IMG/VR virus record: IMGVR_UViG_3300021958_000026
Direction: 5' to 3' (one strand)
DNA length: 64,000 bases
DNA from: an uncultured virus (IMG/VR IMGVR_UViG_3300021958_000026)
Lineage: Duplodnaviria; Heunggongvirae; Uroviricota; Caudoviricetes
The notes under the pieces are model-generated. The model saw nothing but the letters and a program-made list of their open reading frames with translations, was not told the origin of the DNA and ran no database searches. The translations under genes and the position numbers were made by a program. Each line of letters opens with the position of its first letter. Positions within the stretch are counted from its first letter, which is position 1. Below, one piece after another: positions 43,621 to 62,586 of the stretch.

Positions 43621-44448
43621 CTAGGAAATAGGTGTTGCAGGCCACTGTTGTGATAATTCACCATCCCATCTTGCAACTGGAGTTCTACCCTGTCTTGCAT
43701 AGGTAAACGGTTGTCTATGTTGATAGGTAAATGGTGTTTGACCTTGACGTGCATAAGTAAATGGTTGTCTATTTTGATAGGTGAAAGGTGTTTGACCCTG
43801 TCTTGCATATGTCACTGGTTGTCTATGCTGATAGGTGAAAGGTGTTTGACCCTGTCTTGCATATGTCACTGGTTGTCTATGTTGATATGTAAACGGTTGT
43901 CTTGCACTAGCAATATATGGGTATTGTCCATTTGCAATGTAAGGATACGGTTGTTGTGCATTAGCAATATAAGGCGATTGTGCATTTGCAATATATGGGT
44001 ACGGTTGTTGTGCTGATGCAATATATGGACTTTGTGCATTTCTAATGTTAGGTTCTTGTGCTGACCTTATATTTGGTTCTTGTGCAGACCTTATATTTGG
44101 TTCTTGTGCAGACACAGGGTTTCTATAGGTAAATGGTGACCTATAGTTGTATGTAAACGGTTGTCTTGCATTAGCAATATAAGGAACCCTATATGTAAAT
44201 GGTACTCTATAGGTAAACGGTTGTCTTGCATTAGCAATATAAGGCACACGATATGTAAACGGTGACCGATAAGTTACAGGTTGTTGTGCTGATGCAGGAT
44301 ATCTATTGGAATACGTAAATGGGTTTTGGAACGTAAACGGTTGTTGTGCTGATGCAGGATACCTAGCATTATAGGTAAACGGAGTCTGCACGTTTATCGT
44401 GCTTCTCGCATTTCCTGTTGTTATCGTCCTATAAAAACCTGTTGCCAT
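43621..44448 (-). CDS. Repeat-array fibre protein B (reverse-complement partner of A)
   Basis: Residues 21-254 are 30 units of 6/8/10 aa beginning [QR]xP. Confidence 0.8.
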   Translation of the reverse strand: MATGFYRTITTGNARSTINVQTPFTYNARYPASAQQPFTFQNPFTYSNRYPASAQQPVTYRSPFTYRVPYIANARQPFTYRVPFTYRVPYIANARQPFTYNYRSPFTYRNPVSAQEPNIRSAQEPNIRSAQEPNIRNAQSPYIASAQQPYPYIANAQSPYIANAQQPYPYIANGQYPYIASARQPFTYQHRQPVTYARQGQTPFTYQHRQPVTYARQGQTPFTYQNRQPFTYARQGQTPFTYQHRQPFTYARQGRTPVARWDGELSQQWPATPIS

Positions 44449-45282
44449 TTTACTTTATAATCCTCATTATTTCAATTGTTGTGGGAAGAAACCGCCACCG
44501 CCGCCACCACCACCGTAGAAGTATACAACATTCTGTCTGAAGTTATACGTATACGGTTGTTGTGCTGTACTTGGTTGTCTTGCGTTTGCAATATAAGGCA
44601 CACGATAGGTAAATGGGTTCCTTGCACTGTTTGGTTGTCTTGCATTAGCAATATAAGGTACACGATATGTAAACGGTGACCTAAATGCTACTGGTTGTCT
44701 TGCATTTGCAGGATACCTTGCACTATAAGTGAACGGTGTTTGACCGTTTGCTGGATATCGAGCATTTGCAGGATACCTTGCACTATAAGTGAACGGTGTT
44801 TGACCATTTCTAATATTAGGTTCTTGTGCAGACACAGGGTTTCTGTATGTAAATGGAGACCTATGGTTGTATGTAAACGGTGACCTATGTTGATAGGTAA
44901 ACGGTGACCTATGTTGATAGGTAAACGGTTGTCTGTTTTGATATGTGAAAGGAGTTTGTCCTTGTCTAGCATATGTTACAGGTTGTCTATGTTGATACGT
45001 AAATGGTGTCTGACCTTGTCTAGCATATGTAAATGGTTGTCTATGTTGATACGTAAATGGTGTCTGACCATTTGCAATATAAGGTGACTGTGCATTTGCA
45101 ATGTAAGGATAAGGTTGTTGTGCATCAGCAATATATGGTGATTGTGCATTTGCTATATAAGGATAAGGTTGTTGTGCATCTGCAATATATGGTGTTTGTC
45201 CATTTGCAATGTACGGATAAGGTTGTTGTGCATTAGCAATATATGGATACTGACCATTTGCAATGTACGGATAAGGTTGTTG
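43687..45282 (-). repeat. Coding tandem repeat arrays of genes B (43687-44388) and A (44581-45282)
   Basis: 18/24/30-nt units. Exact DNA duplications include 43775-43827 = 43829-43881 and 44702-44745 = 44762-44805. Confidence 0.9.
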
Positions 45283-45438
45283 AGTTAACTCTTGACCTGA
45301 AGCGTCATTCCAACCAGTAGGAGTTTTGATGTAAATTTGTTTTACAGCACTCCAAGTACCTTGTGCAGTTTTTACCCATGCACCTCTTGTAGCACTCCAC
45401 CCTGTAGGTGTTTTTACGCTTTGATTACCTGACGCCAT
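44467..45438 (-). CDS. Repeat-array fibre protein A with N-terminal VK-x3-W docking-like domain
   Basis: N-terminal VKTPTGW/WVKTAQGTW/IYIKTPTGW motifs; residues 53-286 are 30 repeat units; poly-Gly near the C-terminus. Confidence 0.8.
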   Translation of the reverse strand: MASGNQSVKTPTGWSATRGAWVKTAQGTWSAVKQIYIKTPTGWNDASGQELTQQPYPYIANGQYPYIANAQQPYPYIANGQTPYIADAQQPYPYIANAQSPYIADAQQPYPYIANAQSPYIANGQTPFTYQHRQPFTYARQGQTPFTYQHRQPVTYARQGQTPFTYQNRQPFTYQHRSPFTYQHRSPFTYNHRSPFTYRNPVSAQEPNIRNGQTPFTYSARYPANARYPANGQTPFTYSARYPANARQPVAFRSPFTYRVPYIANARQPNSARNPFTYRVPYIANARQPSTAQQPYTYNFRQNVVYFYGGGGGGGGFFPQQLK

Positions 45439-51071: not shown

Positions 51072-51953
51072 TTAACCTCTAACGAGGTCTAAAGTGCAAC
51101 AATGTAGTCCACCTGATAACTCACGTGTGTATCTTAGAGGTACAGGTATACAATTAAATCCTTTCTTACCCAATTTATCCATTAATTTTACTTGACTTTC
51201 ATTCACAAACAGTGTATTATGATTAAGAGAAAGAGTATTCATACCAATCATTTTTCCTGCTATCTTGTCTTTAATGACAGGTCTCTCCTCTACGATATCC
51301 TCATCATGTATCCAAATAATGTCCCAATCTTTAAAAAATACTGGTACATTGTCTTTGTTGACTCTGTTAGCATTAATCATAACTGTACCCTCTGATATGG
51401 GAACAATAGTTGTGTCTATGTGTGATATGTTATCTCTTAGAGAAATGTAATCAATATTTTTATTAGGAAATTGTTTTTCTAACCACAATCTTCCATATCG
51501 ATTTGCAGTTTCGTTTGTTGCAATGAGTAGATTATCTCCCAGTCTACAGATATTTGCACCATCAAAAATAATATCAAATTCTGAATTCCAAGAAGGTTTG
51601 GGGCCTGATATCCATGTGTATCCTTCAGACCATTTTTCAAAAAATATTTTTTTAAGTGTAGATAGATTTCCGTACTCTTTTTCATATCGCATAGACCCTT
51701 CAACTATAACATCATCTATGACGACAGCACAATCCCTAACATTATAACACATTCCATTAGGTCTGTAAACCTTTACATTATTGGATTCTAGAATATTAAC
51801 AAATTTGTTAAGTCCTTCTTCTGCCTCAACAAATATATCGTATATGAATTCAGTAGTATGATACTCTGAATAATTGTCTTGTTTTTGAAATCCTTTGAGT
51901 GTCCCTACAACAATCTCACGTAGTGGAGACCACTCGTCACGTGAACATAACAT
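51072..51953 (-). CDS. Amidinotransferase (glycine/inosamine amidinotransferase-like, pentein superfamily)
   Basis: EWSPLREIVVG, NVRD, FDGAN, HIDTT, SGGLHCCTLD catalytic Asp/His/Cys motifs. Confidence 0.88.
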   Translation of the reverse strand: MLCSRDEWSPLREIVVGTLKGFQKQDNYSEYHTTEFIYDIFVEAEEGLNKFVNILESNNVKVYRPNGMCYNVRDCAVVIDDVIVEGSMRYEKEYGNLSTLKKIFFEKWSEGYTWISGPKPSWNSEFDIIFDGANICRLGDNLLIATNETANRYGRLWLEKQFPNKNIDYISLRDNISHIDTTIVPISEGTVMINANRVNKDNVPVFFKDWDIIWIHDEDIVEERPVIKDKIAGKMIGMNTLSLNHNTLFVNESQVKLMDKLGKKGFNCIPVPLRYTRELSGGLHCCTLDLVRG

Positions 51954-52192: not shown

Positions 52193-52525
52193 TTACCTCG
52201 TTACGCCTGGTGTGACAATTGCTTGTCCTTCTATAACACGAGTTTTCTGACCAGCACTGCTTTCAATATTTAGGTCATACACGTATCTTCCACCTTCCAG
52301 TCCTGCAGTTACAGTATCGGTTAACGAGATAGTCACCTGTCCTGCTAATTCTGCAATAGACGTATCAAAGGTTGCAGCAACTGTAGATGAGGTATAAGTT
52401 CTTCTCACTTGTGCAGTTGCAGTGTAACCACTTAATTCTAAAACTTCCCCTGCAGAATCTGTAACGTCTACAGTAATGGAAAAATCAGTACCTTGGTCTA
52501 TGTATATGTTTGCAATTATCGCCAT
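52193..52525 (-). CDS. Conserved virion adaptor-like protein
   Basis: IDQGTDF..GRYVYDL..RVIEG...TPGVT; late promoter at 52531. Confidence 0.7.
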   Translation of the reverse strand: MAIIANIYIDQGTDFSITVDVTDSAGEVLELSGYTATAQVRRTYTSSTVAATFDTSIAELAGQVTISLTDTVTAGLEGGRYVYDLNIESSAGQKTRVIEGQAIVTPGVTR

Positions 52526-52533
52526 AATACTAT

Positions 52534-53349
52534 TTATACACTCGTGTTACTTGGATTCTTAGAGAATCTTGCAGTAGGAACGGACTGGTGAATTTTTTCT
52601 AATGTTCCACCATCGTTTACATATACTTCATCAAGTTTTCTAAGTGTTCCACTATCATTCACAAAAACACCTTTAACCTTTGCAACTGGCCCAACGGTTC
52701 TTGTAGTTGGGTAGGATACTTGATAGGTAAATGGTGACCTTATAGTATAAGGAATCTGATATGCAACTTGATAGGTAAATGGTGTTTGACTATTTGCAAT
52801 ATACGGACTCTGTGCATTTACAGGGTTTCTATATGTAGAAGGTGACCTATGTTGATAGGTAAACGGATTCCTTGCATTTGCAATGTAAGGATATGCCTGT
52901 TGTGCAGACCTAATATTTGGTTCCTGTGCATTTGCAATGTACGGATAGGGTTGTTGAGCATTTGCAATGTACGGATAAGGTTGTTGATTGTTATACGTGA
53001 AAGGTGTTCTACCTTGTCTAGCATACGTTGCAGGTTGTCTGTTACTATAGGTAAATGGTGTTTGACCTTGACGTGCATAGGTAACAGGTTGTCTATTTTG
53101 ATATGTAAACGGTTGTCTGTTCTGATAAGTAAATGGTTGTCTACTCTGATACGTAAACGGTGTTTGACCCTGTCTTGCATAGGTTACAGGTTGTCTTGCA
53201 TTAGCAATATATGGACTTTGTGCATTCGCAATATAAGGATACGGTTGCTGTGCATTAGCAATATAAGGCGTTCTACCCTGCAATGCATAAGGTGTTTGAC
53301 CTTGTGCAATATAAGGATACGGTTGTTGTGTGGTTTGCAACTCTGCCAT
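52534..53349 (-). CDS. Repeat-array fibre protein C (reverse-complement partner of D)
   Basis: Residues 8-193 are 22 repeat units; C-terminal VFVNDSGTL/VYVNDGGTL docking-like motifs. Confidence 0.8.
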   Translation of the reverse strand: MAELQTTQQPYPYIAQGQTPYALQGRTPYIANAQQPYPYIANAQSPYIANARQPVTYARQGQTPFTYQSRQPFTYQNRQPFTYQNRQPVTYARQGQTPFTYSNRQPATYARQGRTPFTYNNQQPYPYIANAQQPYPYIANAQEPNIRSAQQAYPYIANARNPFTYQHRSPSTYRNPVNAQSPYIANSQTPFTYQVAYQIPYTIRSPFTYQVSYPTTRTVGPVAKVKGVFVNDSGTLRKLDEVYVNDGGTLEKIHQSVPTARFSKNPSNTSV

Positions 53350-54461
53350 TTTTAGTTCTCGTTAAACTGTCCTGTAGATGCAATCAGTTCTATTCCACCT
53401 GAAGTATAAGTTGTAATATAACTGTCACTACTTCCTGAAGGAGTTGCACGGACTGTAAATGTTACACCATATGTGCCACCAATACCAGTTTCAACCCTTG
53501 AAAAGGACGAACCATAGTTTGGATTAACCTTTGCCATCCAACCAAATGTTGTGAGTGAATAATATGTTCCTGAATTATACCCATCGGTAACTGGTGTGGG
53601 CCCAAATGCACCACTCATACAATTACCTGAACACGATTGCTGAGATACTGTATATTTACATTCAAATGTTGAAGAATCTGTTACTGGAGACTGATAATTA
53701 ATTGAGTCGGTATACACTGTTGCCATTTGTGCTGAAGTACCAGCTTTCCAGCTAACATCGACTTGGTTATTTGTAGTGTCTAAACTAAACCCCATTGTTG
53801 CGAATGCTTCAGGGAATCCTGAAGAGTTAACACTTTGACGAGGAACCCATGGACTTGCACCTGATGGGCCCCAAGATTGGTCTAGAGGACTGATGCTTTG
53901 TGTTCCAGTTGCATTAAACGTATAAGGTGTCTGTGCAATATATGGGTAAGGTTGTTGATTACTATACGTAAATGGTGACCTACCCTGTCTTGCATAGGTA
54001 AACGGTTGTCTATGATTATAGGTAAACGGACTTTGATACGATGCAATGTACGGATACGGTTGTTGAGCGTTTGCAATATAAGGTGACTGAGCATTTGCAA
54101 TGTATGGACTCTGACCATTTGCAATGTATGGACTCTGTTTGTTTGCTATGTACGGATAGGGTTGTTGAGCATTAGCAATGTATGGAGTCTGACTATTTGC
54201 GATATAAGGATACGGTTGTTGTGCATTTGCAACATATGGTGTTCTACCCTGTCTTGCATACGTGAAAGGAGTCTGTCCCTGACGTGCATACGTGAACGGA
54301 GAACGATAGTTATAGGTAAAAGGTGTTCTACCTTGGTTTTGGTATGTAAAGGGTTGCTGAGCGTTTCTTATAAATGGTGTCTGTGCATTTACAGGACTTC
54401 TGTAGGTAAACGGTTGTCTGTTTTGATACGTACTAGGTTGTCTTGCGTTTGCAGGAGTCTG
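52771..54461 (-). repeat. Coding tandem repeat arrays of genes C (52771-53328) and D (53904-54461)
   Basis: Same 18/24/30-nt unit vocabulary as A/B in a different order. Confidence 0.9.
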
Positions 54462-54566
54462 TGCAGGAGTCTGTCTGACTTCTAGCGATTGAGCATTTCT
54501 TACAGATTGACCTTGGTACGGTTGTTGAAAACTCGACCCTGTGTTTATATAGATTTCATCAGCCAT
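53352..54566 (-). CDS. Repeat-array fibre protein D with C-terminal ~180-aa globular domain
   Basis: Residues 36-221 are 22 repeat units, followed by a non-repetitive S/T/G-rich beta-type domain. Confidence 0.8.
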   Translation of the reverse strand: MADEIYINTGSSFQQPYQGQSVRNAQSLEVRQTPAQTPANARQPSTYQNRQPFTYRSPVNAQTPFIRNAQQPFTYQNQGRTPFTYNYRSPFTYARQGQTPFTYARQGRTPYVANAQQPYPYIANSQTPYIANAQQPYPYIANKQSPYIANGQSPYIANAQSPYIANAQQPYPYIASYQSPFTYNHRQPFTYARQGRSPFTYSNQQPYPYIAQTPYTFNATGTQSISPLDQSWGPSGASPWVPRQSVNSSGFPEAFATMGFSLDTTNNQVDVSWKAGTSAQMATVYTDSINYQSPVTDSSTFECKYTVSQQSCSGNCMSGAFGPTPVTDGYNSGTYYSLTTFGWMAKVNPNYGSSFSRVETGIGGTYGVTFTVRATPSGSSDSYITTYTSGGIELIASTGQFNEN

Positions 54567-55683: not shown

Positions 55684-55888
55684 TTAATTTCCCCATGAGT
55701 TCAGTTAAGAGAGACTTAATTTCACCCATCTCTTCTTTTAATGTATTTATCTCGTTTACCTGATTCCTAAAAATCTCTTTTCTTTTCTTTGCAAGTCTCC
55801 ACTGTTCAATATCAGTAGACACGATTGCTTGAGAACTATCGTCTCTATATAAATGTGTTGCACCTTCTACTTTAATATAATCAGACAT
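55676..55888 (-). CDS. Small conserved coiled-coil protein
   Basis: KVEG..LYRD..S.AIV...EINTLKEEMGEIKSLL; coupled to the upstream gene. Confidence 0.7.
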   Translation of the reverse strand: MSDYIKVEGATHLYRDDSSQAIVSTDIEQWRLAKKRKEIFRNQVNEINTLKEEMGEIKSLLTELMGKLSG

Positions 55889-58800
55889 TATGCAACTGCA
55901 ATACATCTCAATGCAGATACCAATGGTACTGTTGATGTATTGTATCCTCTTCCTACAATCTTAATGATGAACCCACTAAATTCAGGTAGGTCATCTACAC
56001 TGAATTCATACTCTTTAAAGTTTCTTGCATCTGCATCAATTACTGTATCAGGTGAACCATCACTGTTGAAGAATTCAAAACCGATATCATCGATTGCAGA
56101 TTCTTCATCGTTTTTGATAATCTTATACATGACCTTAACGTCTGTCGTTGCAGGTCTAAAGATATCTGCAGTCACCCTTAATCCTGATGCAGGTGCTTTC
56201 AAGTTAACTTTCTTAGTGATGTAACACATTGCATTATCTTCACCTTCTGAATCGGTTGAGATTGAAATGGTTTCTGCATCACTTGAATTTAATCCGTTTA
56301 ATCTGTTTGCAATTGCAATTGCACCCAATGAACTTAAGTCTACAACTGGTGAAAGGTTTGAATTACCTGACACTAATTGTAAAGCACATCTAAATGACCT
56401 GTTCGAAGACATCTCATTCTGTTCATTGATTCTTGATGCAACGACACTTGGATATGAGAAGAACACGTTATCGTTCAATGCGATAATCTCTCCAGCAGTT
56501 CTTCTATTATATACTGTACCGTTGATATAACCTTCAGGTGAATTCATAGGAGTACCAACTTTATGTACACTAATGAAACAATCTTCAGGTGTTACATTTG
56601 GAATAACAGTATGCAGTGTATCGTAGTAATAGTTACGTGTTGAGTATACCTCATCACCACCACCAACTGTCGAATCACTTGCAGAGTAATCTGACACAAA
56701 GTCATATCCTGAGATATCAGGAGTTACTCTAAATGTATCCATTGTAAATGTTGAACCAATCGAAGTGAATGTTTGATTGATTGCATCAATTGGAATACCA
56801 CCAAGTGAATCACCAACTGTATCGATAGTTACGGTAAAACTAAAGGTTGAACCAATAGTACAAGTGATAATATCACCTGCAACATGTCCACTACCTGCTT
56901 GTAGTATTCTTGTTCTTGTAATGTCTGCAGTTCCTGAAAGTGTTTCCACTTTAATTTCAAATGCAATACCGTTTTCAGTTACATCACCACTACCATTAGT
57001 TGTAATCGTTACTGCATCTGAACCAACGGTTCCACCATGAACAATGTCATAGGTTCCATCTGAAGGTAGTGTACCACTATCTACTGCATTTTGTACCTCT
57101 AATACTGAACCAGTTCTATCACCAGTCACACCTGAAATGGTTACATTTGATGATGTATTGTACATACCGTGAGTATAGTTATATACTTTAACATATGTCT
57201 GACCTGAAACAGTTTCTATTGGGTTGTTCTGCAGTTTTGCATTCGGTAAATCTAAGTTTTCAAATTCAAGATATCCTGACACTGAAGTGTCAAACTTACA
57301 TGCTCTCAAGTGGAACTTGAGGTCATCTTCTTGTGCAGCAGTCCAAGTCGAGTTGTTCTGTGACATGAATAATGAACCTGCATAAGGTTGTCCTGAAATT
57401 GTTTGTCCAGTTGCAAGGTCTGTTTCACCCATTCTTGAATGGAACACTTCGTATTCGTTAGAGTTTGAATATACCACAAACACATACTCTTGGTTTGTCT
57501 CTAAAAATACTGGTGATTCGAAAGTAAAAGTGGTTGCAGTTGAACCATCTTGTGAAAGGTTAATTTCACTTGGATTCTTAGTTACTGTTGAGAATGGAAC
57601 CACGTTAGGGCCTGGATAACCATTCACCATTGTTCTTACTTGTACTGACACTGGTAAGTTTGCATCTCTTGTCTTAAAGAACAAGTCTATGGATGATAAC
57701 ATTACTCCACCTTTTGCATCAACCAAGAATGATTGTGCAAGTGGGTCTGACCATTCAAAAAATAAATCATTACCAATATCAAAGATTGGGAAATCAAAGT
57801 CAAACTCAAACGGCGGGCCAGGTGGCGGTGGAGGTGGTGGGTCTGATATAATGACTGGTGGTACCACAGGTGGTTCAGGTGGTAACACAGGTGGGTCAAT
57901 AATAATAGGCGGTTCAGGTGGTTCATTAGGTTCACTAGGTGGTTGTGGTATTGCAGGTGCAGTAGTGTCAATATTTGTTGCATTGACAACCTCACCTCTA
58001 GTTGAGAAGTTTCTTTCTCCTGAAAGTCTTTCTGTTACCACTCTACCATTTCTAGTAGATACAATCTCAGTTTGGTTGGATTGTAATAAACCTTGTGCTT
58101 GATAGATACCTGTTCCTGCAGATGAAGGACTTCTCTCATTATACTTAGATGAGGTAAGTTTTAATTCTCTCTGACCTGTAGGGAATCTTTGTGTATTTGA
58201 ATTAGGTAATTCAAAGTATGCACGAAGTCTACCGTTACCATCTGTCTTAACACCTTTTCCAAGTGTTGTAGAAGAACCATCTTGTGCATATGCACTACTG
58301 AATGGTCTTACATATGACCCCACTGGTACGTCATCAAAATAGACGTAATGCCATGTGTCAGGTTTTAAATTTGTTGCATCAATCTCAATAGTCTTTGCAC
58401 GAATGAAAGGTATGATTGAAACTGATACGAGTCTGTCGTTTCTTGATTCTACAAAGTCTTCAACAACTGATGTAGTAACACCTGTTCTTGTTTGAATCTC
58501 AGGTGTTTCTGTAATCTCTCTTGATACTTGTAAGCCTGGAACCCATTCTCCACCTTGAGTTGGGTCTCCACTCCATGAACCGTTAGATGATGCAGTAACT
58601 TCTGTTGAAATAGTTTGAGGTTGACCAACCCATGTGGTCTGCCATGCATTCCAAACTGTACCTAATGAGTTTGTATTCTCAGCAAGAACTGCATCGAAAT
58701 TACCTTCTCTGTTTACTCTAACTTCAGGTAATCTTTCTGAATCGTTCCACACGTCTGTTTCAGGTGTGAGTTTAACATCACCAATAAATGCAAAGACGTG

Positions 58801-61800
58801 ATATGGGTTAACATTGATTGCACGTGATGCCTTGTCTTGATTTACAAATGTAACCTCAGAATAAGGAAGTGTCAATAAGTCACCAGTCTTCTTATAGTTC
58901 TGAGATGTTGCACTCTTAAATCCAATATCAAAGAATTGTGAATATGATTGTGGTCTTAATACACCAAGTTGTGAATCAACGGAGTTCTTGTAATCAGGAT
59001 GGTTTACATCACCGACTCTGTGACCTCTAAAGTTGTCTACTAGGAAACCTGATTTGAATCTATCAAATCCATCTCCATCTAAAATTTGTTTTGTTTGAGT
59101 GTCTTTCTCAAGTAATGAAAGAGATGTTACTCTTTCTAAGTTAGTCACTCTCTGATTGATTTTACCAATATCTTTCATGGTAAATCTTCTATGGTCTTGT
59201 GACCTAACTCTAATGTTCTTTAAGTTTTTGGTAAACGGAGGAATTGTTAATTCAAACAATTCGATAGCACCATCAACACTCTTTGGTTTGGTTGGAGATA
59301 ATGCAGGTTCACCTGAAGAGACTTGGAACTTACCTGACTTGTGTAGGAAGAGTTTATCAACTCTTCCAACATAGAATTCAATGTCACCTTGGACACTTGA
59401 ACCTGTTACAGGAGTGCCAGGCAAACTAGGATTAGTATCATAGTTATAACCTGTGTTAGTTGTCTCTTTGTCTCTTGAAGATTTATAACTTCTACCTTTC
59501 TCATATGAGAATGGTGCATATTCAATTGCAGTACTGATATCAGATACTGAAGATAAATCAGGGTTTGCAGATAAATCTATATCATACAACTGACCAACAA
59601 CTGGTCTGAAGTCTAAGGCATCTGATAATTCATAAGTACCGTCAGGTTCTAAACCACCCAAGTCTACTTTGTTTGCAGAGTAGACAGGAATGTCTTTATA
59701 TGGTACACTATATGATGTGACATCAAAGAAGTCACCATCACCATGTGAGAATTGGTCAAAAACAATAAGAATCTGATTATTAGGTGCAGGTTCTGCTGGT
59801 TTTCTGACTAATTTACATATATCATAGTAACCATCTCTCTGACCATCATCAAAGAAATATCTTGATGTGATATTTGGTGAACCTTGTGATACGTCTGTAA
59901 GTGTTGCTTGTGCAAGTGAATCTTGACCAACAACAAACTCATTCTCTTGGAATCTACCTGATATCATATACCAGTACGATGTTCCACCTGAGTTATAGTC
60001 AATCAATACAGCACGTGCATTTGATGTTTGTCCAACAAGGACTTCATGAAGTTGGAATGTACCTACTTCACTTGAAAGTGATGCATTAGGTGTAACTGGA
60101 GTTCCTCCAACACCTTCATAGATTCCTCTAATTTTAAATACGTCTGCAATACCAAGAGAAATCTCTTTATCTCTAAATGATGAACCATACACTCCTGTGT
60201 ATGAACCGTTTCTATCACCTGAGACTCGTAATGCACGTCCTTTGTTTAAATCTTTTGTTCTTGGATTTGGGTCTGCAATTAATACTGAGTATGTAACTCT
60301 TAAAACGACATCTTCGTTTGCAGCACCAAAACCTGTAAGTGTAATACTCTGACCATCACCATTTTGTGTAGGTGAAGTGTCTTCATAATCTTCTATGTTT
60401 AGTGTATCACCTGCAGAGAATGTTGGAGAAGCTGCAGAACTGACATCGATAACTGCAATTGAGAAGTTATCAGTGTTTTGGTCTTCAAATGTACCCTCTG
60501 TTTGTGCAATAGTAATATTACCTGATGCACCAATGGTTTGTACTGTTTGTCTTTTAACTTTTACTAAATCTGCAGTGTGGTCTTTAACCCAGTCTCTAGG
60601 CCATGAGAAGATGTTTACTGTTTGGTCTTGGTCAATAAGTTTTACACGTCTTCTTTCAACATTACCTTGATATGCATTAGTTGAAGGACTTGTAAGTGTT
60701 AAACTGATATCGTTTGTAATTGATGCAACAATAAGTTCTTGGCCACCAAGTGGGTTAACAATAATGTCACCCTCTTTAAGTTCTGATGCAAATAAAGTAC
60801 CTACACCACTAACTGCAGTGCTTGATGCAGTGAATACTAGTGTACCTGTTAGAATTTTAACTGCATCTGTATTGATATCTGCAGTAAAGGTTTCCCTTGA
60901 ACCATTTGTTGGTGCCTGTGTAATAGACCTTGTACGGTCAATGTTATAGTTTCTTGGTGTACCATCAATACTACATGCAAAGTTACCTGCACCCTCAGAA
61001 GAAAGTGAGTCATTTGATGAGAAGTTTCCTACTACATCATGAACATAAAGTGCATCTGAATTATTATCATACGCAACAATACCAGTAGCACCTGTTGCAC
61101 TACCTGTTATCTTATCACCTGCTTGTGCAGTACCTGTATGAGATGTATACGGTAATTTGGAGAACATCTTAATGTCAAACATTGACAAATCATATTCTGA
61201 ATTACTTGCATAGACACCACTTGTGTCTGAACCGTCATGCAATTCAATATCTCGTACTCTTGCATAACCGATAAAATCTTCAGAGTTTTCTGTTCCGTCT
61301 ACTGCAACAACACTAGGCCATAACTTACAGAATTTGTAAGGAGTGATACCTGTACTGTTAACACCTTGAATTACTTCAGGTAATCCGTGTGCATTTGAAA
61401 CTCTTAATTTATTACCTAAACGAATAGGTGATTTTGCATTTGATAACGACTTAGTTGAACGTGCCTTTGAGAAAGGAATTGTTGTAGTACCAGTTTTGTC
61501 AATTTCAAAACCTCTAACATATGCCTTACCAGGCGATACTTGCATTACAAACTTATCTTCTTTACCACCTGAACCTACAGGATAGAAACCTCTGTTGGTT
61601 GTGTCGTCTAAGTGTTCTCTTAATGATTGTGTAAATTGTCTAACTACAAAGTCACCATTTGCATCGTATGTTCTACGTGCAAGTGTCTTTTCAATGGTGT
61701 TGTAGATAGGATTGGAAATCTGTAACTCAATGATACCTTGATTAACTCTAATCAATTCAATAAAGTTTGCATCAGTTTGAGTGTCAATAGTGAACTTTGC

Positions 61801-62586
61801 AAGTGTTAGATTAACTTGGAATCTATCTGCACCTGCAGCGTTCTCGTTTGAAGACCCTTGTGCATTATCTTGTAATGATGAGTCTTCTGAATTAGAAATG
61901 AGTTTCTCTTCTATTTTTAGACCAATTCTATATGATGGTCTTGAACTATACTTTTCTAATAGTAAATGTTGTTTTGGAACCTTTACAAAGAAACCTCTTG
62001 TAAAGATAACACCTTCATCAATCTCTGCTCTTGAACCAACTCCGATTGAGTTGTTTGTTGATGGAAGGACTTTAAATTCGTTGTTGTTTGCAGATACAGC
62101 AGAGTATGCACCACCTGAATCTACAGTTACTTCCTGTAGTTCCTCACCTGCAGTGAATGTGTATTCGTTGTTTGTACCTGAAGTTAGATACTTAAAGAAG
62201 ATAGTTAATTCGTCATCGGATGTTTTTGCAGAAGAATCTATAACCTTTGCAACAACACCTGAAGTTTTACCACGAATTAGTTTACCATGGAATGATTCTC
62301 TATATGTTTCGACAACGTCATCACCATTAGTATTTGGATTCTCAGTATCTACTTTTGCATAGTAAAGTTCTAAGTCAATACCTGACTGAACACCTGCAAC
62401 AATAGAACCTTCTTTAAAGAAATGTCCACCAAGTCTTTCAACTTGGTTCTGAAGAATTGATTGTGACTGAGTTAACTCTCTTGCTTGTAGAGGTCTTCCT
62501 GCTCTGAAGAGAACCTTATGAAAGTTTTTATCTTCAGAGTAGTCATCGTAGTATGGTGATATATTTAAATCAGTTTTTTCTGGCAT
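55888..62586 (-). CDS. Large virion structural protein (DUF4815/VrlC-like)
   Basis: NISPYYDDY..VLFRAG..QARELTQ, GKAYVRG, RFKSGFLVDNF, DPLAQSF. Confidence 0.85.
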   Translation of the reverse strand: MPEKTDLNISPYYDDYSEDKNFHKVLFRAGRPLQARELTQSQSILQNQVERLGGHFFKEGSIVAGVQSGIDLELYYAKVDTENPNTNGDDVVETYRESFHGKLIRGKTSGVVAKVIDSSAKTSDDELTIFFKYLTSGTNNEYTFTAGEELQEVTVDSGGAYSAVSANNNEFKVLPSTNNSIGVGSRAEIDEGVIFTRGFFVKVPKQHLLLEKYSSRPSYRIGLKIEEKLISNSEDSSLQDNAQGSSNENAAGADRFQVNLTLAKFTIDTQTDANFIELIRVNQGIIELQISNPIYNTIEKTLARRTYDANGDFVVRQFTQSLREHLDDTTNRGFYPVGSGGKEDKFVMQVSPGKAYVRGFEIDKTGTTTIPFSKARSTKSLSNAKSPIRLGNKLRVSNAHGLPEVIQGVNSTGITPYKFCKLWPSVVAVDGTENSEDFIGYARVRDIELHDGSDTSGVYASNSEYDLSMFDIKMFSKLPYTSHTGTAQAGDKITGSATGATGIVAYDNNSDALYVHDVVGNFSSNDSLSSEGAGNFACSIDGTPRNYNIDRTRSITQAPTNGSRETFTADINTDAVKILTGTLVFTASSTAVSGVGTLFASELKEGDIIVNPLGGQELIVASITNDISLTLTSPSTNAYQGNVERRRVKLIDQDQTVNIFSWPRDWVKDHTADLVKVKRQTVQTIGASGNITIAQTEGTFEDQNTDNFSIAVIDVSSAASPTFSAGDTLNIEDYEDTSPTQNGDGQSITLTGFGAANEDVVLRVTYSVLIADPNPRTKDLNKGRALRVSGDRNGSYTGVYGSSFRDKEISLGIADVFKIRGIYEGVGGTPVTPNASLSSEVGTFQLHEVLVGQTSNARAVLIDYNSGGTSYWYMISGRFQENEFVVGQDSLAQATLTDVSQGSPNITSRYFFDDGQRDGYYDICKLVRKPAEPAPNNQILIVFDQFSHGDGDFFDVTSYSVPYKDIPVYSANKVDLGGLEPDGTYELSDALDFRPVVGQLYDIDLSANPDLSSVSDISTAIEYAPFSYEKGRSYKSSRDKETTNTGYNYDTNPSLPGTPVTGSSVQGDIEFYVGRVDKLFLHKSGKFQVSSGEPALSPTKPKSVDGAIELFELTIPPFTKNLKNIRVRSQDHRRFTMKDIGKINQRVTNLERVTSLSLLEKDTQTKQILDGDGFDRFKSGFLVDNFRGHRVGDVNHPDYKNSVDSQLGVLRPQSYSQFFDIGFKSATSQNYKKTGDLLTLPYSEVTFVNQDKASRAINVNPYHVFAFIGDVKLTPETDVWNDSERLPEVRVNREGNFDAVLAENTNSLGTVWNAWQTTWVGQPQTISTEVTASSNGSWSGDPTQGGEWVPGLQVSREITETPEIQTRTGVTTSVVEDFVESRNDRLVSVSIIPFIRAKTIEIDATNLKPDTWHYVYFDDVPVGSYVRPFSSAYAQDGSSTTLGKGVKTDGNGRLRAYFELPNSNTQRFPTGQRELKLTSSKYNERSPSSAGTGIYQAQGLLQSNQTEIVSTRNGRVVTERLSGERNFSTRGEVVNATNIDTTAPAIPQPPSEPNEPPEPPIIIDPPVLPPEPPVVPPVIISDPPPPPPPGPPFEFDFDFPIFDIGNDLFFEWSDPLAQSFLVDAKGGVMLSSIDLFFKTRDANLPVSVQVRTMVNGYPGPNVVPFSTVTKNPSEINLSQDGSTATTFTFESPVFLETNQEYVFVVYSNSNEYEVFHSRMGETDLATGQTISGQPYAGSLFMSQNNSTWTAAQEDDLKFHLRACKFDTSVSGYLEFENLDLPNAKLQNNPIETVSGQTYVKVYNYTHGMYNTSSNVTISGVTGDRTGSVLEVQNAVDSGTLPSDGTYDIVHGGTVGSDAVTITTNGSGDVTENGIAFEIKVETLSGTADITRTRILQAGSGHVAGDIITCTIGSTFSFTVTIDTVGDSLGGIPIDAINQTFTSIGSTFTMDTFRVTPDISGYDFVSDYSASDSTVGGGDEVYSTRNYYYDTLHTVIPNVTPEDCFISVHKVGTPMNSPEGYINGTVYNRRTAGEIIALNDNVFFSYPSVVASRINEQNEMSSNRSFRCALQLVSGNSNLSPVVDLSSLGAIAIANRLNGLNSSDAETISISTDSEGEDNAMCYITKKVNLKAPASGLRVTADIFRPATTDVKVMYKIIKNDEESAIDDIGFEFFNSDGSPDTVIDADARNFKEYEFSVDDLPEFSGFIIKIVGRGYNTSTVPLVSALRCIAVA

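Follow-up and report, generated by a model that had tools for sequence, protein, structure and literature searches.

In a 64,000-nt stretch of DNA from an uncultured virus of the Caudoviricetes (IMG/VR record IMGVR_UViG_3300021958_000026; hereafter the window), two adjacent genes, G404 and G271, encode proteins that each carry a long array of short, proline-anchored repeat units. We confirmed that the two arrays are mirror images of one another: read in opposite directions, they present the same succession of unit lengths, with the two unit classes swapped. We estimate at about 0.72 the probability that G404 and G271 are two chains of one fibre stalk, associated as an antiparallel β-ribbon with a register code written in the length and class of the units. 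An earlier note, made from the sequence alone, had called the two genes D (G404) and C (G271) and had proposed such an antiparallel pairing. The genes and their parts are as follows.

53352..54566, minus strand: G404, 404 aa (open reading frame and translation)
53904..54527, minus strand: G404 repeat array, approximately residues 14-221 (unit parse and residue-level pairing with G271)
53355..53891, minus strand: G404 C-terminal domain, residues 226-404, predicted β-sandwich (AlphaFold2)
52534..53349, minus strand: G271, 271 aa (open reading frame and translation)
52705..53328, minus strand: G271 repeat array, approximately residues 8-215, class-swapped mirror of the G404 array (unit parse)
52537..52704, minus strand: G271 C-terminal domain (…VGPVAKVKGVFVNDSGTLRK…EKIHQSVPTARF), conserved in split and fused homologs

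Organisation of the repeat arrays

G404 begins with the motif MADEIYINTG, followed by the repeat array and the C-terminal domain. The ATG of G271 lies 2 nt past the stop codon of G404. Both arrays can be split into units starting with xxP, every one of which is 6, 8 or 10 residues long. In the F class, xxPFTY is constant and the unit lengthens at its C-terminal end. In the A class, the terminal …ANA is constant and the unit lengthens right after xxP. The consensus sequences, taken over 363 distinct F·A unit pairs, are xxPFTYARQG (F10), xxPFTY[QNS][NHA] (F8) and xxPFTY (F6) for the first class, and xxPYPYIANA (A10), xxP[YN]I[AR]NA (A8) and xxP[VAS]N[AG] (A6) for the second. The claim of the earlier note that F units shorten from their C-terminal end is thus borne out, xxPFTY being kept at all three lengths. 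Its claim that A units shorten from the other side holds in so far as the loss occurs after xxP and spares the …ANA end, but the 6-mers of the window pair read xxPVNA and not ANA. A third regular subtype, xxPNIRNA, has as partners F units ending in H or Y.

The G404 array runs from a mixed F/A block through an F block, an A block and a second F block to A-like end units. Its unit lengths are 8, 6, 6, 8, 10, 8, 10, 10 (F-rich), then 8, 10, 8, 10, 8, 8, 8, 10 (A), then 8, 10, 8 (F), followed by the unit QQPYPYIA. The G271 array starts with QQPYPYIAQG and QTPYALQG and continues with 8, 10, 8 (A), 10, 8, 8, 8, 10, 8, 10, 8 (F), 10, 10, 8, 10 (A) and 8, 6, 6, 8 before the tail. When G404 is read backward from residue 211 and G271 forward from residue 18, 20 consecutive lengths agree by hand alignment, with the class swapped at each step.

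Long alternative-frame or antisense open reading frames (ORFs) of 107-168 aa overlie the arrays at 52849..53355 (plus strand), 52818..53180 (minus strand) and 54162..54485 (plus strand). These are most simply by-products of stop-free repeats and not genes.

Mirror symmetry in the window and in related loci

The symmetry was assessed with a test that ignores unit class. The positions of the anchor prolines in two proteins were compared, and the pairs sharing one sum (antiparallel pairing) or one difference (parallel pairing) were counted, with 500 shuffles of unit order as the null. In the window pair, 21 of the 28 G271 anchors fall on one antiparallel sum, against a shuffle mean of 8.6 and maximum of 15, and the best parallel offset collects 13. 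Self-pairing gives low peaks (16/33 and 14/28, in counts where every pair is counted twice). Parallel pairing and self-pairing were both rejected, as they score under antiparallel cognate pairing.

Homologs at E<=1e-3 are numerous (430 for G404 and 312 for G271) and are named 'hypothetical protein' at most. A scan of viral contigs yielded 64 loci, reduced to 47 non-identical sets of array ORFs, and two or three array genes are adjacent in 32 loci. The antiparallel peak exceeded both the parallel peak and all 500 shuffles in 32 of 33 comparisons of adjacent genes, with near-complete mirroring of the anchors in some of them (70/72, 51/54, 30/32 and 27/30). The 32 gene pairs comprise 26 distinct mirrored series. 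The cognate partner was the best match for 27 of the 32 first genes, the exceptions being four near-identical relatives and locus L052. A pair from a genome collection, used out of sample (L065), mirrors 24 of 27 anchors for a shuffle maximum of 14. These counts uphold the antiparallel pairing between chains that the earlier note had put forward.

The swap of classes is equally regular. Among 458 distinct unit pairs, both units could be classed in 376, which divide into 363 F·A, 10 A·A and 3 F·F. Length changes are also shared by the two genes. Compared with the window, L006 has corresponding blocks that are 12 residues shorter in both genes, one A10F-A8F step present in L023 is absent from both genes of L024, and L010 and L017 differ alike in both genes. 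Finally, the even unit lengths reported by the earlier note extend from the window arrays, where 6, 8 and 10 are used throughout, to the related loci: among anchor spacings of 4-12 residues, 2207 are even and 45 odd, the lengths 6, 8 and 10 contributing 795, 927 and 385.

Residue register

Since matched lengths permit any constant shift between the chains, the register requires other evidence. The register tested was that of the earlier note, which set FTY opposite ANA. Here the fourth residue of the F unit (F4) faces the last residue of the A unit (A-last), so that with 1-based positions i+j = L+4 for units of length L. Covariation between F4 and A-last gives z values of 20.6 (L=8), 8.0 (L=10) and 8.0 (L=6). 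By rank this pair is at the top for L=6, in second place for L=10 and in fourth for L=8, and no other pair ranks high in all three length classes. The three 8-mer pairs that score above it each include F8 and stem from the linked NIRNA subtype. At F4 and A-last, F goes with A or G; G, A or N with S or T; L with Q; and Y with I. The check that the earlier note had suggested, inter-chain covariation across homologous pairs, thus returned a signal, and this signal survives shuffling of the partners within locus, length and orientation: the mutual information is 0.771 against 0.305±0.024, a value reached in 0 of 2000 shuffles. The diagonal neighbour F2 × A-last reaches z 11.2 and the odd-position pair F5 × A-last-1 z 8.7.

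The volumes of opposed residues lead to the same register. Over whole arrays they correlate at r=-0.49 at the FTY/ANA shift, and of the 17 shifts tried it is this one that has the lowest value in 30 of 31 loci, as anticipated by the proposal that bulky residues face small ones. The within-unit correlation is ambiguous at some shifts, and the whole-chain version is decisive. The comparative data also agree with the remaining oppositions of the earlier note, AR or QH opposite YI or NI and QG opposite YP. Lastly, all prolines in the array spans (2323 of 2323) are of one parity. Only even shifts would be acceptable, because an antiparallel ladder would then place all prolines of both chains at non-hydrogen-bonded positions, judging from β-sheet geometry. 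Comparative sequence data therefore support an antiparallel pairing with FTY opposite ANA.

A pair of irregular units

Two units near facing ends of the arrays depart from the consensus.

53934..53957, minus strand: irregular unit QQPYPYIA, G404 residues 204-211, an A10 unit without its final NA (unit parse and pairing)
53275..53298, minus strand: irregular unit QTPYALQG, G271 residues 18-25, an F10 unit without FT (unit parse and pairing)

The earlier note, whose span (53275 to 53957) is bounded by the last base of QTPYALQG and the first base of QQPYPYIA, had placed these two units exactly opposite one another, and they are indeed partners in the proline-anchor register. In the FTY/ANA register they form the residue pairs Y·G, P·Q, Y·L, I·A and A·Y. 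Canonical A10·F10 pairs read Y·G, P·Q, Y·R, I·A, A·Y, N·T and A·F, and the irregular pair corresponds to the first five positions. The absent dipeptides NA and FT thus face each other, because the irregular pair is an A10·F10 pair minus its last two residue pairs (N·T and A·F). The units are not, however, the single irregular ones of their arrays, as had been stated. QTPFIRNA and QEPNIRSA, which belong to the regular xxPNIRNA subtype, QQAYPYIANA, which lacks the anchor proline, and both array ends also deviate.

The matched two-residue deletion proposed by the earlier note agrees with this opposition. However, three relatives (L002, L004 and L006) conserve the pair in this position, variants such as QQPYPFIT·QQPASTQG being found, and the pair may instead be an old specialised unit marking the tip-proximal end of the array, with no compensating deletions behind it. 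We regard this alternative as a serious one, at rather less than even odds. Hybrid end units in other lineages, such as xxPYTFNA·xxPYIAQG in L016, speak for it, as does the single countable event of this kind in the window lineage. Against it, exactly the last two residue pairs of the canonical A10·F10 are missing, and coordinated length changes do exist between the close relatives described above (L006 and the window, L023/L024, L010/L017).

A second mirrored pair and single-gene forms

The window contains a second pair of array genes.

44467..45438, minus strand: A323, chain 1 of the second mirrored pair (anchor test against B275)
43621..44448, minus strand: B275, chain 2 of the second mirrored pair (anchor test against A323)

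Here 31 of 33 B275 anchors are mirrored and 30 consecutive unit pairs are complementary. Cross-combinations of A323 and B275 with G404 and G271 gave anchor scores of 12-19 only. A323 begins with MASGNQSVKTPTGW… and ends in a run of eight glycines followed by FFPQQLK; the C-terminal end of B275 is RTPVARWDGELSQQWPATPIS.

Many A323-type chains (P0086, P0015, P0051; L065:1205-2428) continue from the array through a poly-Gly run and a Cys into a Hint/intein-like domain (Pfam Hint, Vint and Intein_splicing, E 1e-5 to 5e-8). This domain ends in …HN, with no Cys, Ser or Thr after it. This arrangement suggests that the stalk is autocleaved at its distal end, next to the N-terminus of the partner chain.

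Two array pairs per contig are found elsewhere too (L017 with L033, and L012 with L035). In those contigs the long pair has cognate scores of 70-71 and cross scores of 18-20, and the cognate score of the second pair, 19, is no higher than the cross scores.

Fused forms encoded by a single gene combine a G404-type N-terminus (MADEIYINTG…) with a G271-type C-terminus (…AKVKGVFVN…EKIHQ). In the clearest of them (P0025, P0029, P0038; L018, L019), 9-13 unit pairs can be drawn between the N- and C-terminal arms, nearly all of them F·A, and the best ones count 9-11 F·A pairs. A 164-aa protein from a 914-nt contig (P0125) resembles P0025 with an internal deletion between two TYPANAQTP repeats; it is either a recombinant that has lost most of one arm or an assembly artefact.

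Structure prediction and database searches

For residues 226-404 of G404, AlphaFold2 predicted a β-sandwich with pLDDT (predicted local distance difference test) values mostly of 67-92. A Foldseek search of this domain against the PDB gave no match at E<=0.001, and BFVD returned uncharacterised phage proteins only (E 1.6e-5). The best match in a wide VIA-align comparison was the CfaE adhesin, at a weak Z of 5.2 that lies within the common range of the tool. The ESM Atlas provided no informative cluster. We infer that this C-terminal β-sandwich is the distal tip of the fibre.

No Pfam family was found for G404, G271, A323 or B275, and no PHROGs family for G404 or A323. The C-terminal residues 223-256 of G271, and these only, are covered by phrog_13729 (unknown function, E 4.6e-6), and residues 235-260 of B275 have one weak match to phrog_33328 (unknown function, E 0.0023). 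A phmmer search of the PDB gave no match under E 0.1. By tblastn against 50,697 phage records, no relative of G404 or G271 was found, and two weak partial matches were obtained with A323. A full-text literature search outside subscription journals returned no report on such proteins. The two-chain architecture with mirrored arrays appears to be undescribed.

Proposed architecture and alternatives

In the architecture that we propose, the arrays of G404 and G271 would lie side by side, antiparallel, and pair residue by residue, with residue i of G404 opposite residue 232-i of G271. In each unit pair, an invariant junction of xxP against Pxx would be joined to three core residue pairs (F·A, T·N and Y·A), to which up to two optional modules of two residue pairs each are added, Q/A-N/H/R facing I-Y and then Q-G facing P-Y. 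With such a build, a unit of 6, 8 or 10 residues would need a partner of the same length and of the other class. The whole would form an extended two-stranded β-ribbon with all prolines at non-hydrogen-bonded positions, which fits the even lengths and the single proline parity, and one face of the ribbon would set large residues (F, Y, R, H) against small ones (A, G, S, N). The aperiodic succession of unit lengths and unit classes would act as a code for both register and partner, allowing one alignment and keeping G404/G271 apart from A323/B275. The N-terminus of G404 and the C-terminal domain of G271 would close one end of the stalk, presumably the proximal one, and the β-sandwich of G404 would stand at the opposite end as the putative tip. 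At about 3.3 Å per residue, the anchored span of 180 residues would give a stalk some 60 nm long. The mirror code, its covariation and the register signal are observed; the β conformation, the direct contact, the stoichiometry and the role of the pair in the virion are inferred.

A broader interpretation, to which we give slightly better than even odds, is that the pair is to polypeptides what a base-paired duplex is to nucleic acids, namely a naturally occurring, programmable β-zipper that is heterospecific and spans 110 to >500 residues per chain. The aperiodic 6/8/10 series would then be an address that fixes the register and selects the partner among several pairs per virion, insertions and deletions in one gene would force matching ones in the other, and the same code could operate between two chains or within one chain folded back on itself.

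Several observations weigh against the two-chain ribbon. AlphaFold2 left the G404 array unfolded as a monomer (pLDDT 20-30). The fused form P0029, modelled from 19 aligned fused forms, had a mean pLDDT of 33.5 with its arrays as coil, and in this low-confidence model only the strands 5-9 and 448-480 came near pLDDT 50-60. When the fused forms were compared with their own shuffle maximum, 8 of 20 were above it, 3 tied and 9 fell below, and their matched units comprised 66 F·A, 10 F·F and 34 unclassed pairs. Two adjacent pairs gave no mirror signal: L052, with a peak of 10 for a shuffle maximum of 12 and a tied parallel peak of 10, and L066, from the genome collection, with a peak of 8 for a shuffle maximum of 10. 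The loci are related, and the z-scores consequently overstate the number of independent events. The unit classes were assigned by regular expressions that we wrote ourselves, and the residue volumes are background values. The covariation of F8 with A2, A4 and A6 comes from linked subtypes, and the register cannot be fixed from it alone.

As a separate observation, the arrays of L052 and L066 are degenerate or otherwise anchored.

In one alternative, the units do associate antiparallel, unit to unit, but not as a simple hydrogen-bonded two-stranded β-ribbon. The chains might form a bundle of several heterodimers (three-fold, for example), a face-to-face zipper or another extended conformation, 'opposite' then meaning a spatial neighbour. 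In its favour, trimers are the usual form of phage fibres, the modelled ribbon has an aromatic-rich face that would need to be buried, and no hairpin ribbon emerged when AlphaFold2 modelled the fused single chain. We nevertheless consider this arrangement unlikely: covariation is found at both parities (F4 × A-last, and F5 × A-last-1 with the z given above), which better fits an edge-to-edge ladder than a one-face zipper, and the strict rules of even length and proline parity are a requirement of a continuous β-ladder.

A different antiparallel register, for example with anchor proline opposite anchor proline, two residues off, is less probable still. It would be allowed by the matched unit lengths, which tolerate any constant shift, and the strongest covariation of the 8-mers, F8 × A6 (z 40), falls on the proline-opposite-proline diagonal. 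However, F8 × A6 cannot be separated from the linked subtype positions A2, A4 and A6, the volume correlation at this shift is r=-0.18 as compared with -0.49, the shift is the most negative in 0 of 31 loci, and it is F4 × A-last that recurs across all three length classes. That the mirror pattern has no protein-protein meaning, and arose through a DNA-level process (inverted duplication or an RNA stem, which would also give an antiparallel mirror) or templating by a third component, is very improbable: the top inverted repeat in 52534-54566 is 25 nt at 72%, with no inverted repeat linking the two arrays in the nucleotide sequence the mirror cannot be a DNA or RNA stem, A units translated in antisense do not give F units (plus-strand ORF 52849..53355), the code is held through 26 series, and size compensation is present at the residue level. 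The antiparallel two-chain ribbon in the FTY/ANA register thus remains the preferred reading.

Genomic setting

All ORFs of at least 200 aa in the window are on the minus strand, and its guanine-cytosine content is 34-40%. The array genes are located within a myophage baseplate and fibre module, that is, where a generic phage tail or baseplate fibre would be encoded. The module includes a gp8-like baseplate wedge protein (Pfam Phage-Gp8, E 2.1e-9; phrog_438, E 7.3e-107), 35-37% identical to its counterparts in Pelagibacter phage HTVC008M and cyanomyophages, and several tail-fibre-like ORFs. On the basis of the baseplate and fibre content and of the wedge identity, the source is judged to be an uncultured T4-like marine myophage. 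A 67-kb IMG/VR contig (L001) contains a stretch identical to the window. Two neighbouring genes are listed below, the first of which led us to assign the pair to the fibre module.

52193..52525, minus strand: neighbour resembling LtfC, an L-shaped tail fibre assembly protein, 110 aa (phrog_3304, E 5.3e-23; Pfam PF23926, E 0.0011, under its cut-off)
55888..62586, minus strand: DUF4815 structural protein, 2232 aa, with a proline-rich linker (…PPSEPNEPPEPPIIIDPPVLPPEPPVVPP…PPPPPPPGPP…)

The fibre module also holds a 293-aa gene (51072..51953, minus strand) with a weak match to the arginine deiminase/amidinotransferase fold (Pfam ADI, E 0.0084, under its cut-off; phrog_25854, E 5.2e-31), an enzyme-like product amid fibre genes.

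Significance and comparison with known systems

If the pairing is real, it represents a new mode of fibre building, in which two chains, or one chain folded back, zip together antiparallel by means of short units of complementary size whose lengths spell out the register. Co-evolution between proteins would be directly readable from sequence, because matched insertions and deletions show in two genes. Such arrays could serve as a natural template for orthogonal β-strand heterodimers and for nanofibres of set length. A role would be given to an unannotated family found widely on contigs of uncultured myophages of marine type, and the tip domain is predicted to be modular and exchangeable.

The arrays were compared with several classes of elongated proteins. 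A collagen-like or polyproline-II fibre was rejected, the spacings of 6, 8 and 10 being even and showing no three-residue periodicity, with no glycine at every third residue. A coiled coil of the type of the SMC hairpin was rejected too: helices are excluded because a proline occurs every 6-10 residues throughout both arrays. Mirrored, class-complementary unit series are found in both chains, as a two-chain antiparallel β-ribbon would have them.

Functionally, the nearest analogues are the antiparallel arms of SMC, Rad50 and MukB and the spectrin heterodimer, and by gene context the fibre shafts of phages; each of them departs from the present arrays in a defining feature. The SMC-type arms too form a long stalk in which N- and C-terminal parts meet at one end and a separate domain sits at the turn, the two arms carry matched irregularities, and both one-chain hairpins and two-chain forms exist. 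Those arms are α-helical and heptad-based, whereas the present arrays have a two-residue periodicity and short, size-complementary unit classes, and there is no sequence or family relation between them (no Pfam match). The spectrin α/β heterodimer likewise consists of two different repeat chains lying antiparallel side by side with repeat-to-repeat specificity. Its repeats, however, are three-helix bundles of 106 residues, and their pairing is neither residue by residue nor coded by length.

As regards phage and viral fibre shafts (T4 gp34-37 and gp12, the adenovirus triple β-spiral, reovirus σ1), the pair shares with them a location in a baseplate or tail-fibre gene module and a repetitive shaft carrying a distal β-sandwich domain, which here is predicted. 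The known shafts are parallel homotrimers with near-constant repeats. In contrast, the 6/8/10 series of the present arrays is aperiodic, which does not match parallel homotrimeric shafts such as the triple β-spiral or T4 gp12/gp37-like fibres, and the mirrored, class-swapped arrays of variable units are divided between two gene products. Silk-type β-sheets and the single-layer sheet of OspA resemble the proposed ribbon in their extended β-strands and their alternation of large and small side chains, and indicate that exposed ribbons can be stable. Silk, however, is built from one repetitive sequence class packed into multi-strand crystallites, with no complementarity between two genes and no register code.

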